DNA of 19,692 nt from a virus. Taxonomy: Duplodnaviria; Heunggongvirae; Uroviricota; Caudoviricetes. The notes below the pieces were generated by a model that was not told the origin of the DNA, did not search any database, and worked only from the letters and a program-made list of their open reading frames with translations. The stretch covers positions 1-19,692 of the IMG/VR virus record IMGVR_UViG_2778261637_000010. The stretch is one strand, 5' to 3'. This document shows positions 279-9,439 of the stretch, piece after piece; position 1 is the first letter of the stretch; every line of letters starts with the position of its first letter. Both the position numbers and the translations under genes were made by a program.

Positions 279-767
279 ATGGCAGCACCAAAGGGCAACC
301 GATTTTGGGAGGCCCGCAGTAGTCATGGGCGAAATCCTAAATTCGAATCGCCTGAGGCGCTGTGGGCTGCTTGTTGTGAATACTTCGAGTGGGTGGAAGC
401 TAACCCGCTATGGGAGATGAAGGCGTTCTCGTATCAGGGTGAAGTGATACAAGAGCCTATCGCCAAGATGCGAGCGATGACACTCGCCGGGCTGTGCTTA
501 TTTCTCGATATTTCTGATGAAACATGGCGAAGATTCCGCGCGGATGAAGGTTTTTGTGGAGTCACTACGCGAGCGGAGAAAGTCATCTACGACCAGAAAT
601 TCTCTGGCGCAGCCGCTGACCTTCTCAACGCTAACATCATCGCCCGTGATTTGGGCCTCAAAGAGCAGTCGCAAGTTGAAGACGTGACACCTGATAAGGG
701 AGATCGCGATAAGCGACGCTCTCGTATCAAGGAGCTATTCAACCGTGGAACTGGACGCGATTCTTGA
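279..767 (+). CDS. 3: Terminase small subunit (P22 gp3-like), 162 aa
   Basis: Track ORF 273..767; ATG at 279 has better spacing to the GTGAG Shine-Dalgarno-like motif and gives 162 aa, the P22 gp3 length as I recall. Lies immediately upstream of and overlaps the large terminase start; contains a pac-like sequence at the expected codon position. Confidence 0.85.
546..573 (+). other. Candidate pac (packaging initiation) site inside the small terminase gene
   Basis: GAAGGTTTTTGTGGAGTCACTACGCGAG resembles the P22 pac sequence as I recall it (GAAGATTTATCTGAAGTCGTTACGCGAG); begins at codon 90 of gene 3, as in P22. Confidence 0.45.
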
Positions 768-2247
768 TAACTTGAGCGACGAAGAGCAAATCGAATTGCT
801 CGAGCTACTCGAAGAAGAAGAGAACTACCGTAACACACACCTGCTATATGAATTTACGCCATACAGCAAACAGCGTGAGTTCATCGACGCCGGGCATGAC
901 TATCCAGAGCGCTGTTTTATGGCTGGTAACCAGCTTGGTAAGTCATTTACTGGTGCTGCTGAAGTCGCGTTTCACCTTACCGGGCGTTATCCGGGCACAA
1001 AAGGCTATCCTGCTGATGGTAAATATGGCGGTGAGTGGAAAGGTAAGCGTTTTTATGAGCCTGTTGTCTTTTGGATTGGTGGCGAGACAAACGAGACTGT
1101 AACCAAAACGACTCAACGCATCCTGTGTGGTCGCATCGAAGAGAATGGTGAGCCAGGCTACGGTTCCATACCGAAAGAAGACATCATTAGCTGGAAGAAG
1201 TCTCCTTTCTTTCCGAACCTTGTTGATCATCTTCTGGTTAAGCATCACACGGCTGATGGCGTTGAAGATGGCATTTCAATCTGCTACTTCAAACCATACT
1301 CGCAAGGCCGTGCTCGCTGGCAGGGTGACACAATCCACGGCGTGTGGTTTGACGAAGAGCCACCATACAGCATTTATGGCGAAGGTCTTACCCGTACCAA
1401 CAAATACGGGCAATTCTCAATCCTGACGTTTACCCCGCTGATGGGGATGTCTGACGTTGTTACCAAGTTCCTGAAGAATCCCAGCAAGTCGCAGAAAGTG
1501 GTCAACATGACCATCTACGACGCTGAGCACTACACAGACGAACAGAAAGAGCAAATCATCGCATCTTATCCTGAGCATGAGAGAGAGGCGCGTGCTCGCG
1601 GTATTCCTACGATGGGTAGTGGTCGAATCTTCCAGATACCGGAAGAGACTATTAAGTGTCAGCCGTTCGAGTGTCCTGATCACTTCTACGTGATTGGCGG
1701 GATGGATTTCGGATGGGATCACCCACAGGCTCAGGTTCAGCTTTGGTGGGATAAGGACGCAGACACAATCTACGTTTCACGCGTGTGGAAGGCGAAAGAA
1801 AAAACAGCTGTTCAGGCATGGGGGGCTGTTAAATCATGGGCGCATAAAGTGCCAACCGCATGGCCTCATGACGGAAACCAGCATGAGAAGGGCGGCGGTG
1901 AGCAGCTCAAAGGGCAGTATGCAGACGCTGGATTTATGATGTTACAGGAGCATGCGACATGGCCTGATGGCGGTAATGCTGTTGAGCCTGGCATCACTGA
2001 ATTGCGCGACATGATGCTCGATGGTCGCTTCAAAGTATTCAACACCTGTGAGCCATTCTTTGAGGAGTTCCGCCTCTATCACCGTGATGAAAACGGGAAA
2101 ATCGTCAAGCTTAACGACGACGTTCTCTCAGCCGTTCGCTATGCATACATGATGCGCCGCTTCGCCAAAATGATGCGCGACATCAAAAAACCAAAAGAGA
2201 AAAAGATACCAGCCCCAATCAGGCCCATCGCACGGTCAACAAGATAG
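745..2247 (+). CDS. 2: Terminase large subunit (P22 gp2-like), 500 aa, GTG start
   Basis: 500-aa ORF starting [25 protein letters not shown]; Walker A-like GNQLGKSF; GTG at 745 preceded by AAGGAG (729-734); overlaps end of gene 3. Matches P22 gp2 in length and sequence as recalled. Confidence 0.9.
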
Positions 2248-2256
2248 ATACTGTTG

Positions 2257-2757
2257 TTACGGCTTGAGAAATTCAGAGGCAGCGGAATTCAGAGCGTTAA
2301 TAAATGCTACCTTATGCTTGTATGCATCTAATGCTGTAGCGAATCCGCTTTTTGTGTATTTCTTGCCTTCTACCACAAATTGCCACATGTAGTTATTTGT
2401 GTCCTTGCGATAGGAAACTCCTTTGTATCCAGTTGAATTGTCGCAATCCATGCCACGGTTTAGTCCGTTCAACTGCTTATTGGCATCTCTAAGATTACAG
2501 ATGCGGTTATCAGCACGGTTTCCGTTTATGTGATCTACTGCTTCGGGCCAGTAACCATAGTAGTGCGCAAAACAAATTCTGTGCACGTAGTACAGTTTTT
2601 TACCAAGCCTTACATCAAGGTATCCGTTTCCATGCTGGCACCCAACGGGCTTGCCGTTAAGGTCTGTCCTCCTTGTGCGATTAGCCGCGTACAAAATTCC
2701 GGTTTCAGCATCGTATGTGAAATTTTTCCTTATATCTTCTATAGATGGATGGCTCAC
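2257..2757 (-). CDS. HNH homing endonuclease with C-terminal AP2-type DNA-binding domain, 166 aa
   Basis: HNH_3-type motifs (CQHGNGYLDVRL, YYVHRICFAHYYG, VDHINGNRADNRICNLR) followed by an AP2-like segment (GYKGVSYRKDTNNYMWQFVVEGKKYTKSGFATALDAYKHKVAF). GTG start at 2757 with AGGAG 8 nt upstream. Opposite strand to flanking terminase and portal genes, which are directly adjacent in P22. Confidence 0.7.
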   Translation of the reverse strand: MSHPSIEDIRKNFTYDAETGILYAANRTRRTDLNGKPVGCQHGNGYLDVRLGKKLYYVHRICFAHYYGYWPEAVDHINGNRADNRICNLRDANKQLNGLNRGMDCDNSTGYKGVSYRKDTNNYMWQFVVEGKKYTKSGFATALDAYKHKVAFINALNSAASEFLKP

Positions 2758-2807
2758 AATAGAATCTCCTGTTGAAGTTGTCCCATTGATTTTATCACGG
2801 TAAAGTT

Positions 2808-4976
2808 ATGACTGACAACGCAGAGCGATTAAATAAGATACTGCAAGCATTCGATGTTGATTGGATGTCTTCCGACGAGGCGAGAACAGAAGCTTCTAAC
2901 GATTTATACTTCAGTCGCATAAGCCAATGGGATGACTGGCTATCAAACTACACCACCCTGCAATATCGCGGACAATTCGATGTTGTCCGCCCGGTGGTCA
3001 GGAAGCTGGTCGCAGAGATGCGCCGGAACCCTATCGACGTTCTCTTCCGACCAAAAGACGGTGCTAATCCTGATGCAGCCGATGTATTGATGGGTATGTA
3101 TCGTACTGATATGCGCCATAACACGGCAAAGATTGCCGTTAACGTTGGAGTTCGTGAGCAGATAGAGTCCGGAGTTGGTGCATGGCGTCTGGTCACCCAG
3201 TACGAAGACAACGACCCAACAAGCAACAATCAGGTAATCCGACGCCTTCCAATCCATGAAGCCTGCTCACACGTCATATGGGACGCCAACAGCAAGCAGA
3301 TGGATAAGAGCGACGCTAAGCACTGCACGGTGATTAACGCCTTGTCGCGCAATGGCTGGAAAGAGTTCGCAGAGGATTACGGTATTGATCCTGACACCCT
3401 GCCATCTTTCCAGAATCCGAACGACACATGGCTGTTTCCGTGGGTATCGAATGATGTCGTCTACGTCGCTGAGTATTACGAGGTAGAAGAGAAGAAGGAG
3501 AAAGTCTTCATCTACCGCGACCCGTTGACAGGTGAGCCAGTCAGCTATTACCAGCAGGATATTAAAGACGTTATCGACGACCTGGCTAATCGTGGATTCA
3601 TTAAGGTAGCAGAGCGTAAGGTCAAGCGTCGGCGTGTGTATAAGTCGATCATCACCTGCACGCAGATACTGAAAGACCGCGAGAAGATAGCTGGAGAGCA
3701 TATCCCAATCGTTCCTGTGTACGGCGAATGGTCATTCGCTGGTGACAAGGAGTGCTACGAGGGCGTGGTAAGGCTGACGAAAGACGGTCAACGCCTTCGT
3801 AACATGATCATGTCGTTCAACGCCGATATTGTTGCTCGTTCACCGAAGAAGAAACCGACCTTCTTCCCTGAGCAAATCGAAGGCTACGAATACATGTACG
3901 GTGGAAATGATGACTATCCGTACTATCTGCAGAACAGGACCGATGAAAACGGTAACGACCTGCCGATTGGTCCAATCTCCTACATGGAAAACCCTGAAGT
4001 GCCGCAAGCCAACGCTTACATGCTTGAGGCTGCCACCAACGCAGTGAAAGAAGTGGCTAGTCTTGGCGTGGATGCGCAGGCGGCAAATGGTCAGGTCGCT
4101 TTCGATACCGTCAATCAACTGAACATGCGGGCAGACCTTGAGACATACGTGTTTCAGGATAACCTGGCTACCGCAATGCGACGTGATGGCGAGATTTATG
4201 CCTCAATGGTCAACGATATTTATGACGTTCCTCGTCATGTAACGCTGACACTTGAAGATGGAAGCGAGAAAGACGTTCAACTCTACGCGCAAGTTGTAGA
4301 TTACCAGTCCGGTAATGTGGTCACACTCAACGACATTCGCGGTCGCTATGAGTGCTATACAGACGTTGGGCCATCCTTCCAGAGCATGAAGGAACAGAAC
4401 CGCGCAGAGATTCAGGAATTGCTCACTAAGGTTCCGCAAGGTACTCCAGAGTTCCAGATGCTGATGCTGCAATACTTCACGCTGCTTGACGGTAAAGGCG
4501 TCGAGATGATGCGAGAGTACGCTAACAAGCAACTGGTGATGATGGGGCTGAAGAAACCAGAAACACCTGAAGAGATGGAGATGGTACAGCAGGCTCAACA
4601 GCAGCCGCAGCAGCCATCAGCAGAGCAAATTCAGGCGCAGGGTATCCTTCTGCAAGGTCAGGCTGAATTGCTCAAGGCAGAGAACCAACAGGCGCAGATT
4701 CAGGTTGAGGCCGCCAAGGTTGAAGCCCAAAACCAACTCAACGCCGCGAAGATTGCGGAAATCTTCAACAATATGGACCTCGACAAGCAGGCAGAACTGC
4801 GTGAGTACCTCAAGCTCGTAGGTCAATTCCAGCAACAGCGCAGCAAAGATGCTCGTGCTAACGCTGAGCTGCTTCTTAAAGATGCAGACCAGACTCATTC
4901 ACAACGCATGGATTTCGCGAATCTTATGCGTCAAGTTCAAATCCCCTCCGGCGGAGTAGCCGAGACACCTCAATAA
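2808..4976 (+). CDS. 1: Portal protein (P22 gp1-like), 722 aa
   Basis: 722-aa ORF; long stretches match P22 portal as recalled ([64 protein letters not shown]); Q-rich C-terminal barrel region. Confidence 0.9.
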
Positions 4977-4989
4977 GAGAGAGTTAACC

Positions 4990-5901
4990 ATGGACCAAAC
5001 CACCGACATTCAGGCTTCTGAAGAATTAACCCTGCCCGGAAATCATGCAGCGGCATCTGCTGATGGCTTAGTTGTCGATAATGCCAACGACATCGCAGGT
5101 CAGGAAGAAGGCTTCGAGATTGTCCTGAAAGACGATGAGAAACCAAAACAAGACCCGGCAACTAATGCTGAATTTGCCCGTCGCCGCATCGAACGCAAAC
5201 GCCAGCGTGAGCTTGAGCAGCAGATGGAAGCGGTTAAGCGTGGAGAGTTGCCGGAGCACCTGCGGGTGAACCCTGAGTTACCAAAACAACCAGACCCTAA
5301 CGATTATCTTTCCGAAGATGCGCTGGCTAAGTACGACTATGACCAGAGCCGCGCACTGGCTGCCTTCCAGCAGGCAAACAGTGAATGGCAGATCAAGGCT
5401 ATGGACGCACGAAGCCAGGCTGTCGCCGAGCAGGGTCGCAAAACTCAGGAGTTCACCCAGCAATCAGCGCAATACGTCGAGGCAGCCCGTAAGCACTACG
5501 ACGCAGCGGAAAAGCTCAATATCCCTGACTATCAGGAGAAAGAGGATGCATTCATGCAACTGGTGCCGCCAGCAGTCGGTGCCGACATCATGCGCCTCTT
5601 CCCGGAGAAATCCGCTGCTCTCATGTATCACCTTGGTGCTAATCCTGAGAAAACACGCCAGTTGCTGGCGATGGACGGGCAATCCGTGCTGATTGAACTC
5701 ACTCGACTGTCAGAACGTTTAACTCTCAAGCCTCGAGCCAAGCCTGTTTCAGAAGCCCCGTTACCTGATGAACCCATTCAGGGACACGCTGTTGCTGCAA
5801 ATATCTCTGCGATTGAAAAGCAGATGGAAGCGGCAGCAAACAAAGGGGATGTAGAGACGTACCGCAAGCTCAAGGCGCAACTGAATAAAGGAATTCGATA
5901 A
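4990..5901 (+). CDS. 8: Scaffolding protein (P22 gp8-like), 303 aa
   Basis: 303 aa, the P22 gp8 length; charged/helical composition; ATG at 4990 after AGAGAGAG; stop overlaps coat start (TAATG at 5899-5903). Confidence 0.85.
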
Positions 5902-7196
5902 TGGCATTAAATGAAGGTCAACTGGTCACGTATGCTCTGGATGAAATCATCGAAACCGTCCAGAACCTGACGCCAATGGCGTCCAAAGTGACAAAATACA
6001 CCCCTCCGGCAGAATCCATGCAGCGTTCAAGCAACACCGTGTGGATGCCTGTTGAGCAGGAAGCGCCAACGCAGACTGGCTGGGATTTAACTGGCAACGC
6101 AACTGGGATTCTGGAGCTGTCCGTGAAATGCAACATGGGCGATCCGGATAACGATTTCTTCGAGCTTCGTGCAGATGACCTGCGTGATGAGCGTTCTTAC
6201 CGTCGCCGCATCCAGGCATCCGCCAAAAAACTGGCGAATAACATTGAGTCAGCAATTGCCAAACAGGCAACCGAAATGGGCTCACTTGTTGTTCACGATA
6301 CCCGCGCAATTGGTCCATCTACTGGCCTGTCTGGCTGGGATTTTGTGTCTGATGCAGAGCGCCTGATGTTCTCCCGTGAGCTAAACCGCGATATGGGCAT
6401 CAGTTACTTCCTGAACCCTGACGATTACCGCAAAGCAGGCCGCAACCTGGTAGATGGTGACATCTTCGGGCGCGTTCCTGAAGAAGCGTATCGCAACGGT
6501 ACTATTCAGCGTCAGATTGCTGGCTTTGATGAAATTCTTCGCTCACCGAAACTTCCGGCAGTTACCAAGTCAACCGCGACTGGTGTAACTGTTTCTGGTG
6601 CGCAGAAGTTTAAGCCGCAGGCATACACCCTTGATACCGATGGTAACAAAGAGAACGTCGACAACCGTGTTGCAACGGTGACCGTATCCTCCACCACCGG
6701 GTTTAAGCGCGGCGACAAAATCAGCTTCACTGGTGTGAAATTCCTGTCTCAGATGGCGAAGAACGTGCTGACTGATGATGCTACTTTCTCAATCACCCGT
6801 GTGATCGATGGTACTCACATCGAAATCACGCCGAAGCCGATTGCGCTTGATGACTCTTCACTGACAAAAGAAGAGAAGGCTTACGCTAACGTAAACACCT
6901 CTCTTGCTGATTCCACTCCGGTAAACGTTCTGAACGTGGAAACAACCACCGCTAACGTGTTTTGGGCTGATGACTCAATCCGTCTGCTGTCTCAGCCGAT
7001 CCCGGTAACCCATGAACTGTTTGCTGGCATGAAAACTTCTTCCTTCAGCATTCCTGGCATTGGTGTTAACGGCATCTTCGCAACGCAGGGTGATATCAAC
7101 ACTCTGTCTGGTAAGTGCCGTATTGCTGTGTGGTATTCAGCATGTGCTGTACGACCAGAGGCAATTGGTGTTGGTCTGCCTAACCAGACCGCGTGA
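5901..7196 (+). CDS. 5: Major coat protein (P22 gp5-like), 431 aa
   Basis: 431-aa ORF starting [20 protein letters not shown], ending GLPNQTA; length and sequence match P22 coat as recalled; followed by a strong intrinsic terminator. Confidence 0.9.
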
Positions 7197-7543: not shown

Positions 7544-8021
7544 TTTAGTTCTTGCGGCATTACGTAAGCTCGGTGTGGCATCAAATGCCACGTTAACCGA
7601 TGTCGAACCGCAGTCTATGGAAGACGGCGTCAACGACCTTGAAATGATGATGGCGGAATGGCTTGGCGGTGATGCGTCACCAGGTATCAACGTTGGCTAC
7701 ATTTTCGCTGATGCAGATGTCGCTCCAGATCCGGGCGATGAGCACGGTTTATCAAATAACGCTATCAATGCCATCATTTTCAACCTTGCCTGCCGCATTG
7801 CACCGGATTATGCGCTGGAAGCACCTGCAAAACTTATAACCACTGCCAGATACGGGAAAGAGCGACTCGTCAAACTATCTGCAATGGACAGAGCAAAAGC
7901 CGCTAAATGTAAGTCCGGTTATCCAAACCGTATGCCTGTTGGTAGTGGTAACCAGTTGGTGAAGTTGAACGGTTGGAATTACTTCCACCGAAAGGAACCT
8001 TGCGATAACGGGAGCGAATAA
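7521..8021 (+). CDS. 4: Head completion / tail accessory protein (P22 gp4-like), 166 aa
   Basis: ATG at 7521 gives 166 aa (P22 gp4 length) starting [33 protein letters not shown]; the track ORF 7380..8021 is an upstream extension through the repeat. Stop overlaps gp10 start (TAATG). Confidence 0.8.
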
Positions 8022-9439
8022 TGCCGATTCAGCAACTTCCGCTTATGAAAGGTGTCGGCAAAGATTTCAGAAACGCCGACTATATCGACTATCTGCCAGT
8101 GAATATGTTGGCTACACCCAAAGAAATCCTGAACAGCAGCGGATATCTTCGCTCATTCCCGGGCATTGCCAAACGTTCTGATGTGAACGGTGTATCACGA
8201 GGCGTCGAGTACAACATGGCGCAGAATGCTGTTTATCGCGTGTGTGGTGGCAAACTGTACAAAGGAGAAAGTGAAGTCGGTGACGTCGCCGGAAGTGGTC
8301 GCGTATCAATGGCGCATGGTCGGACATCTCAGGCTGTAGGCGTTAATGGTCAACTGGTCGAGTATCGCTATGATGGCACGGTTAAAACCGTCTCAAACTG
8401 GCCTACAGACAGCGGATTCACACAGTACGAGTTAGGTTTAGTTCGCGACATTACGCGCTTACGTGGGCGCTATGCGTGGTCAAAAGACGGAACTGATTCA
8501 TGGTTTATCACTGACCTTGAAGACGAATCGCACCCTGACCGATACAGCGCACAATATCGCGCAGAGTCGCAGCCTGACGGCATCATCGGCATCGGAACAT
8601 GGCGAGACTTCATCGTCTGCTTTGGCTCATCGACGATTGAATATTTCTCCCTGACTGGTGCAACCACAGTTGGTGCTGCTTTGTATGTCGCACAGCCATC
8701 ACTGATGGTGCAAAAAGGCATCGCCGGGACTTACTGCAAAACGCCATTCGCTGATTCTTATGCGTTCATCAGCAATCCGGCAACGGGTGCGCCGTCTGTG
8801 TATATCATCGGCTCTGGTCAGGTGTCACCAATCGCCAGCGCGAGCATTGAGAAAATACTACGCTCCTACACGGCTGATGAACTGGCTGATGGCGTGATGG
8901 AATCGTTGCGCTTTGATGCTCATGAGCTGCTGATTATCCACCTGCCGAGCCACGTCCTAGTGTATGACGCATCTTCAAGTGCTAATGGTCCGCAATGGTG
9001 TGTACTGAAAACAGGCCTGTATGACGATGTGTACCGCGCTATCGACTTCATTTACGAAGGCAATCAGATAACGTGCGGCGATAAGCTGGAATCCGTGACC
9101 GGGAAATTGCAATTCGACATCAGCAGCCAGTATGGGCTACAGCAAGAACACCTGTTGTTTACACCACTCTTCAAAGCTGAGAACGCCAGATGTTTTGATC
9201 TGGAAGTTGAATCATCGACTGGTGTCGCTCAGTACGCTGACCGCCTGTTCCTCTCTGCAACCACTGACGGCATAAACTGGGGAAAAGAGCAGATGATTGA
9301 GCAGAATGAACCGTTCGTTTACGACAAGCGCGTTTTGTGGAAGCGTGTCGGGAGAATCAGGAAAAATGTCGGCTTCAAACTTCGCGTTATCACGAAGTCA
9401 CCTGTCACTCTGTCTGGCTGCAAGATAAGGATTGAGTAA
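8021..9439 (+). CDS. 10: Tail hub / head completion protein (P22 gp10-like), 472 aa
   Basis: 472 aa, the P22 gp10 length; position between gp4 and gp26; start overlaps gp4 stop and stop overlaps gp26 start. Confidence 0.85.

Follow-up and report, generated by a model that had tools for sequence, protein, structure and literature searches.

A putative free-standing HNH_3-AP2 homing-endonuclease gene within a sharply bounded cassette at the terminase-portal junction of P22-like phages

Between the large terminase and portal genes of a P22-like (Lederbergvirus-type) phage or prophage, we identified a gene that very probably encodes a free-standing homing endonuclease combining an HNH_3 and an AP2 domain, with DNA cleavage and homing as activities predicted from sequence. 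The gene lies in a 19,692-nt stretch of a Caudoviricetes virus (IMG/VR record IMGVR_UViG_2778261637_000010), referred to here in its full length as the window. An earlier note on this DNA, made from its letters without database searches, had proposed a free-standing homing endonuclease between two conserved genes, and the proposal is upheld by the HNH_3-AP2 architecture of the protein, by the presence or absence of the gene at a precise site and by its discordant history.

The large terminase ORF (745..2247; Pfam Terminase_6N and Terminase_6C) stops at 2247 and the P22-type portal ORF (2808..4976; P22_portal, E=1e-160) begins at 2808, leaving a gap of 560 bp (2248..2807). The sole long ORF in this gap, which is intact, is the nuclease ORF, located on the minus strand at 2257..2757 and encoding 166 aa, with a GTG start at 2755-2757 and a stop at 2257-2259. 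A Shine-Dalgarno sequence AGGAG on the same strand (2766..2770), read from the sequence as CTCCT on the plus strand, lies 8 nt upstream of the GTG. These exact coordinates agree with the 560-bp gap, the 166-aa ORF and the AGGAG ribosome-binding site given in the earlier note. The ORF had also been described there as convergent, which is correct relative to the terminase gene, whose stop codon lies 9 nt from that of the ORF, whereas relative to the portal gene it is divergent. In the Escherichia coli carrier prophage CP191548, the 661-nt region around the nuclease gene is 99.7% identical to the window, and RefSeq annotates the junction gene there as WP_024623278.1, 'HNH endonuclease signature motif containing protein'. 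Scanning positions 1900-3200 with Rfam for introns and other RNAs gave no family, group I and II introns included, at E<=1; given this result and the complete terminase and portal ORFs on both sides, an intron-encoded endonuclease was rejected. No NCBIfam family matched the nuclease protein, and a search of the PADLOC defence library yielded only a weak match to a 'homing endonuclease' model (E=1e-4) and no sign of a defence system.

The protein consists of an N-terminal I-HmuI-like HNH domain followed by a C-terminal AP2 domain. HNH_3 (PF13392) matches it in Pfam at E=2e-13, with 50.1 bits against a cut-off of 24.8, and is matched by all 98 aligned homologues; PHROG_99, 'HNH endonuclease', matches at 4.7e-50. 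Among the 98 homologues, the catalytic Asp-His pair (D75 and H76) is invariant and the metal-binding Asn (N97) nearly so, while N84, N88 and N100 are also invariant. D75, H76 and N97 align with D74, H75 and N96 of I-HmuI, which the family profile matches at 1.4e-8 over profile positions 33-105, and the protein has the expected beta-beta-alpha-metal fold. The AP2-like DNA-binding domain (approximately aa 105-166, 2260..2445 on the minus strand) comprises three strands followed by a helix. A direct Pfam AP2 scan of the nuclease protein remained below the gathering score (13.6 bits versus 33.3, E=0.083), while 65 of the 98 homologues passed AP2 individually in the same C-terminal region. At profile positions 108-160, the family profile matches solved AP2/ERF domains, namely those of WRI1 (7e-9), TEM1 (4e-6), ERF096 (1e-3) and AtERF1 (8e-3), and predicted structure and family profile both favour a C-terminal AP2 with its three-strand-plus-helix fold. 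Of the two motifs claimed from the letters, HNH_3 is thus confirmed outright, whereas AP2 fails the direct Pfam scan and stands at the level of profile and fold. A complete lack of HNH or AP2 profile matches, which had been named as evidence against the proposal, is not what was found.

I-HmuI nicks one strand only and binds DNA at its C-terminus through a helix-turn-helix module. This C-terminal part is not AP2, unlike that of the window protein, and I-HmuI (PDB 1U3E) is encoded in a group I intron of Bacillus phage SPO1, whereas the window gene is free-standing with no intron-like RNA nearby. The combination of HNH and AP2 defines a described homing endonuclease class known from phages, cyanobacteria and protists; plant AP2/ERF domains have been proposed to derive from it, and it includes the 'IPA-HNH' genes of ICP1-like phages (PMC10448857). 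Members of this class tend to lie next to essential genes, terminase among them, and at boundaries of genetic exchange (PMC10448857). The window protein shares with the ICP1 class the N-terminal HNH, the C-terminal AP2 and a placement beside essential genes such as terminase. It differs in matching Pfam HNH_3 clearly, for which the ICP1 proteins are too diverged, and in belonging to a subfamily that, unlike the ICP1 class, is bound to a single site, the P22-type terminase-portal junction. Outside the P22 group, its nearest relatives from isolated phages are the multi-copy HNH endonucleases of T5-like phages (Epseptimavirus and Tequintavirus; 'H-N-H-endonuclease P-TflX'), which belong to the same PHROG_99 family and show 36-40% identity over nearly the full length; their genes occupy other insertion sites in other genomes and have low sequence identity to the window gene.

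The closest described case is that of the Salmonella phage SEN22 (Lederbergvirus), whose orthologue was reported as a homing endonuclease and as a unique insertion separating the terminase gene from the portal gene (PMC5261728). Both proteins have 166 aa and are 68.7% identical, and both genes lie antisense at the same junction. The two loci also have a conserved intergenic motif in common, and in both the right boundary of the inserted cassette falls at the portal block CAATGGGATGACTGG. SEN22 nevertheless represents a separate lineage, with approximately 67% nucleotide identity to the window and saturated dS, and its background is a Salmonella phage of the L type, whereas that of the window is of the E. 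coli IME10 type. Given the SEN22 orthologue at the same junction and the known HNH-AP2 class, the window gene adds a new lineage to a known kind of gene at a known site.

Comparison of the junction across relatives, as suggested in the earlier note, showed that insertion-free alleles form the large majority. The nuclease gene is missing from all eight phage records with alignments on either side of the junction; they represent six phages (HZ41, APC_JM3.2, Dewey, CurroJimenez, IME10 and Louie), with flanks 96.6-97.9% identical to the window, and match it in two pieces with approximately 566 bp absent between them. The contiguity of terminase and portal genes stated for P22 in the earlier note holds in these relatives, where stop and start abut: the terminase TAA is directly followed by the portal ATG in IME10, HZ41 and Dewey, in which the empty junction reads TAA-ATGGCCGAC, and stop and start overlap as ATAATG in phage L. 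Phage L and ST64T, relatives of the SEN22 lineage, also lack the nuclease gene. In a set of 5,426 complete E. coli genomes, 217 contained this terminase-portal region, and the nuclease gene was present in two of them; in IMG/VR, it was found in seven of the 80 nearest relatives of the portal. Presence of the gene at this junction in all close relatives, which would have spoken against a mobile element, is therefore contradicted by both datasets. The distance from the terminase tail GCACGG to the portal block CAATGGGATGACTGG was 123 nt in 73 of the 80 IMG/VR loci and 689 nt in the other seven, with no intermediates. A scan of GTDB species-representative genomes with the subfamily alignment gave no confirmed locus.

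The empty junction is itself unusually uniform. Across the 73 nuclease-free loci (L026-L098), the 123-nt segment from GCACGG to CAATGGG showed a mean difference of 0.63%, compared with 4.8% and 2.9% in the 500-nt flanks, and this low diversity extends to synonymous sites. Such nucleotide conservation may reflect translational coupling or RNA structure.

The alignments define the unit of insertion as a 689-nt cassette spanning 2236..2924, in place of which the empty alleles have 123 nt, corresponding to the last 9 nt of the terminase gene and the first 114 nt (38 codons) of the portal gene. The insertion proposed in the earlier note is thus larger than the 560-bp gap given there; the unit also replaces the terminase end and the portal start. 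Identity to empty alleles is approximately 97% up to 2235, absent or approximately 56% over 2236-2924, and 96-97% from 2925 onwards, so that the mosaic edges at 2235/2236 and 2924/2925 are sharp. Behind a rewritten terminase end, the cassette carries the nuclease gene and, after an intergenic region of 50 nt, a replacement portal start. The remodelled terminase 3' end (2236..2247, plus strand) reads Ser-Thr-Arg-stop in place of Arg-Thr-stop in the alignment with HZ41, IME10 and Dewey. The recoded portal start (2808..2924, plus strand; 39 codons, 117 nt) is cassette-borne and shows 56% nucleotide and 72% amino-acid identity to IME10, compared with 96% nucleotide identity over the following 900 nt. 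The GC content of the cassette is 42.4%, versus 49.8% and 51.0% in the flanks; taken separately, the recoded portal segment has 42.7% and the nuclease gene 43.5%, against 48.0% in the replaced segment and approximately 50% in the flanks. In composition, the cassette is foreign.

The recoded portal segment and the nuclease gene occur together. None of 50,697 phage records contained the recoded segment, and among the 5,426 E. coli genomes the segment was present in two, both of them carriers. An independent comparison, that of SEN22 (carrier) with phage L (empty), placed the right edge at the same portal block. The left junctions differ: in SEN22 the terminase stop is retained and the edge lies directly after ATGGC, a remnant of the old portal start, whereas in the window the last three terminase codons are rewritten. 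No terminal repeats or target-site duplication of the transposon type were found at the cassette ends, and the left junction resembles the intergenic region in CCCAT...CACGG over too short a length for interpretation.

Differences at the portal start separate carriers from non-carriers. In 250 of 258 nuclease-free loci, which comprise many portal lineages and 93 distinct alleles, the portal gene starts with ATGGCNGA (Met-Ala-Asp/Glu), with the terminase stop and a Shine-Dalgarno sequence, GAGG or GGAG, directly in front of it. This start was found in none of the 15 carrier loci and was absent also from the other carrier lineages L007, L099 and L101; the recoded segment begins with ATGACTGAC instead. 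The terminase-stop/portal-start junction is the only region that differs systematically between carriers and non-carriers, and it is unusually invariant among the latter, and we therefore predict the recognition or cleavage site to lie in the empty junction or in the first portal codons. This is consistent with the guess, made from the letters, that the cut site would be in the corresponding insertion-free junction of related phages. At 2794-2810, the carrier portal gene lacks the GGAG/GAGG Shine-Dalgarno sequence and the overlap of terminase stop and portal start seen in nearly all nuclease-free alleles. With both the Shine-Dalgarno sequence and the stop-start coupling lost, portal translation must therefore begin differently in carriers, and, given a recoded portal segment with no obvious Shine-Dalgarno sequence, the insertion may carry a cost.

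The mechanism that we propose is that of a homing endonuclease. The AP2 domain and the N-terminal strands of the protein would mediate DNA binding, and its I-HmuI-like His-Me finger (D75, H76 and N97) would nick or cut the conserved terminase-stop/portal-start junction of related genomes without the gene. Recombinational repair from a carrier would then copy the 689-nt cassette into the broken genome, the cargo comprising the nuclease gene with a putative promoter and a ribosome-binding site of its own, as well as the recoded first 38 portal codons. Carriers would be immune to their own nuclease because their genomes would lack the target, removed by the remodelled terminase end together with the recoded portal segment, which is a candidate for conferring resistance to self-cleavage. 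The fixed right edge of the cassette may likewise be explained by the divergence of the recoded segment, since homologous repair would resolve no earlier than the first conserved block.

The diversity of the cassette is discordant with that of its flanks. Between the window and 10 other carrier loci, the cassette differs at 0-4 of 689 nt (0-0.58%), whereas the terminase genes of the same carriers are 3.5-5.6% and the rest of the portal 2.2-2.8% different, and the flank haplotypes vary from carrier to carrier. In pairwise comparisons among carriers, the mean difference was 0.46% for the nuclease ORF versus 2.9-3.2% for the 500-nt flanks, approximately a sixfold contrast. Flanks diverge by 3.1-3.9% from carrier to non-carrier, just as much as within either class, and, together with the low diversity of the cassette, this indicates that the cassette sits in a shared pool of flanks and is younger than the variation in that pool. 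The portion of the contrast that concerns the portal start may reflect local constraint, the empty junction itself being at 0.63%; such constraint leaves the low diversity of the nuclease ORF unaccounted for.

A sharper instance was found in a sister lineage (protein P0003). In its two loci L007 and L008, a block of approximately 760 bp, consisting of the nuclease gene with approximately 150 nt of portal and approximately 60 nt of terminase, is 100% identical. Outside this block, the portals are 89-96% identical nearby, and the terminases, at approximately 57%, are of different types: one set comprises a 485-aa large subunit with an Sf6-type small subunit, the other a 502-aa large subunit with a gp3-type small subunit. 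With an identical cassette beside unrelated terminase sets, the nuclease gene thus pinpoints exactly where the exchanged terminase module gives way to the portal. Every relative that shares 66% or more protein identity and whose context was fetched lies antisense between a large terminase and a P22-type portal gene, and these site-faithful relatives adjoin three different small-terminase families. They were found in Salmonella and Obesumbacterium isolates and in metagenomes, and the window's own lineage was found in E. coli prophages.

The main alternative, which we consider unlikely, is that the gene currently does no homing and is a passenger, a fixed remnant left by one old insertion and spread by ordinary recombination alone. 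The genomes of P22-like phages are highly mosaic (PMC11990801), and the shuffling of flank haplotypes between carriers and non-carriers fits this explanation; ordinary homologous recombination after a single ancient insertion could produce both the low cassette diversity and the flank mixing. What speaks against a passenger is the state of the gene, since decay should bring frameshifts and stops: the ORF is intact in every copy, and intact ORFs of 164-166 aa were present in all eight sequences compared, covering seven lineages, with the catalytic residues conserved. For SEN22 versus L009, the one unsaturated pair, dN/dS was 0.058; in the remaining lineage pairs, dN was 0.08-0.27 with dS saturated, and the NG86 dS was incomputable for most lineage pairs on account of this saturation at synonymous sites. 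These values indicate that the nuclease ORF is under strong purifying selection and, with the intact ORFs, that the gene is no decaying remnant. The sixfold lower diversity of the ORF relative to its flanks, and the sister-lineage block identical in two very different backgrounds, also count against a passenger.

A second alternative is that the gene is kept mainly for the benefit of the phage or prophage, by attacking incoming phages with an empty junction in a form of exclusion or defence. The long-term purifying selection, the occurrence of the gene in integrated prophages, the weak PADLOC match and a predicted target in an essential, conserved junction of competitors would all fit such a role. 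Exclusion is, however, compatible with homing and requires the same nuclease activity; no partner genes of a defence system lie nearby, and the rarity of the gene, carried by 1-9% of relatives, argues against a strong general advantage. As the principal reason for the maintenance of the gene, we therefore regard exclusion as very improbable.

P22-type phages package their DNA by the headful (pac) route, which is not known to use a gp74-like factor; this counts against a packaging accessory nuclease of the HK97 gp74 type, cutting DNA together with the terminase. The gene does directly adjoin the large terminase gene, and terminase-adjacent HNH proteins are known packaging components (PMC10448857), yet this explanation is scarcely credible and was excluded in practice: the gene is not conserved across the phage group, being missing from roughly 95% or more of close relatives and from viable isolates (IME10, HZ41, Dewey, Louie, CurroJimenez, APC_JM3.2, phage L and ST64T), it lies antisense to the late operon, and its product combines an AP2 DNA-binding domain with an I-HmuI-type HNH_3 fold.

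Returning to the homing endonuclease reading, we searched for signals that might control expression of the gene. A promoter-like site on the minus strand (2789..2818) has a -35 hexamer TTGTCA (2818-2813), an 18-nt spacer and a TG-extended -10 hexamer TAAAAT (2794-2789); it scored 10/12 plus TG in a consensus scan and overlaps the portal start codon. A pattern scan also detected a terminator-like hairpin on the minus strand (2211..2225), just downstream of the nuclease stop, in the 3' end of the terminase gene and outside the cassette, and in phage L a minus-strand terminator is annotated at the equivalent position. The counts of promoter-like and terminator-like sites in the region were not above the shuffled expectation, and the putative nuclease promoter and terminator are weak leads. 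A further hairpin followed by a T-run (2579-2595, plus strand) lies inside the antisense nuclease gene, where it would face late transcription heading toward the portal gene; such sites were likewise not above chance.

Between the nuclease and portal starts, an alignment of seven lineages revealed a conserved 20-nt motif, TCCCATTGATTTTATCACGG (2781..2800), kept in lineages that are otherwise approximately 65% identical and including the promoter-like -10 hexamer. Within the motif lies one arm of an inverted repeat, in the form of an inverted copy of the portal block CAATGGGA; the other arm is CAATGGGATGACT at 2925-2937, the invariant portal block that marks the right cassette edge. It may act as the nuclease promoter, as an operator, as both, or as an RNA pairing element around the portal start. 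We tentatively propose, as a possibility that is on balance doubtful, that the nuclease and the synonymously recoded 38 portal codons form an obligate unit. The codons would then provide immunity and explain the right edge at CAATGGGATGACTGG, and the target would be the junction formed by the Shine-Dalgarno sequence, TAA and ATG-GCN-GAY, which is nearly universal and unusually invariant in nuclease-free P22-like phages. The intergenic motif would be a possible operator for autorepression of the nuclease, by analogy with I-TevI, which represses its own promoter.

The cassette adds a well-delimited homing endonuclease unit with exact boundaries to the well-studied P22 group and leaves the current understanding of homing endonucleases unchanged. 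In phages of E. coli as well as of Salmonella, both empty and occupied alleles are plentiful and, with a specific target prediction and existing phages (Dewey, Louie, IME10 and SEN22), they offer a convenient system for studying homing, co-conversion and marker exclusion. The cassette also illustrates how the start of an essential gene can be rewritten and the translation of the portal uncoupled from that of the terminase.

The E. coli carrier prophage CP191548 (L005) contains two extra HNH_3 genes in its head module. One, on the minus strand at 23703-24218 of L005, separates the scaffold gene from the coat gene, and its product shares 41% identity with the window protein over 85 aa; the other, a NUMOD4+HNH_3 gene on the plus strand at 26861-27445, splits gp10, the N-terminal fragment of which is annotated as a pseudogene. 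Both are missing from the window, in which scaffold and coat genes abut (4990-7196) and gp10 is intact (8021-9439). The terminase-portal, scaffold-coat and gp10 insertions therefore amount to at least three separate landing sites in P22-like head modules.
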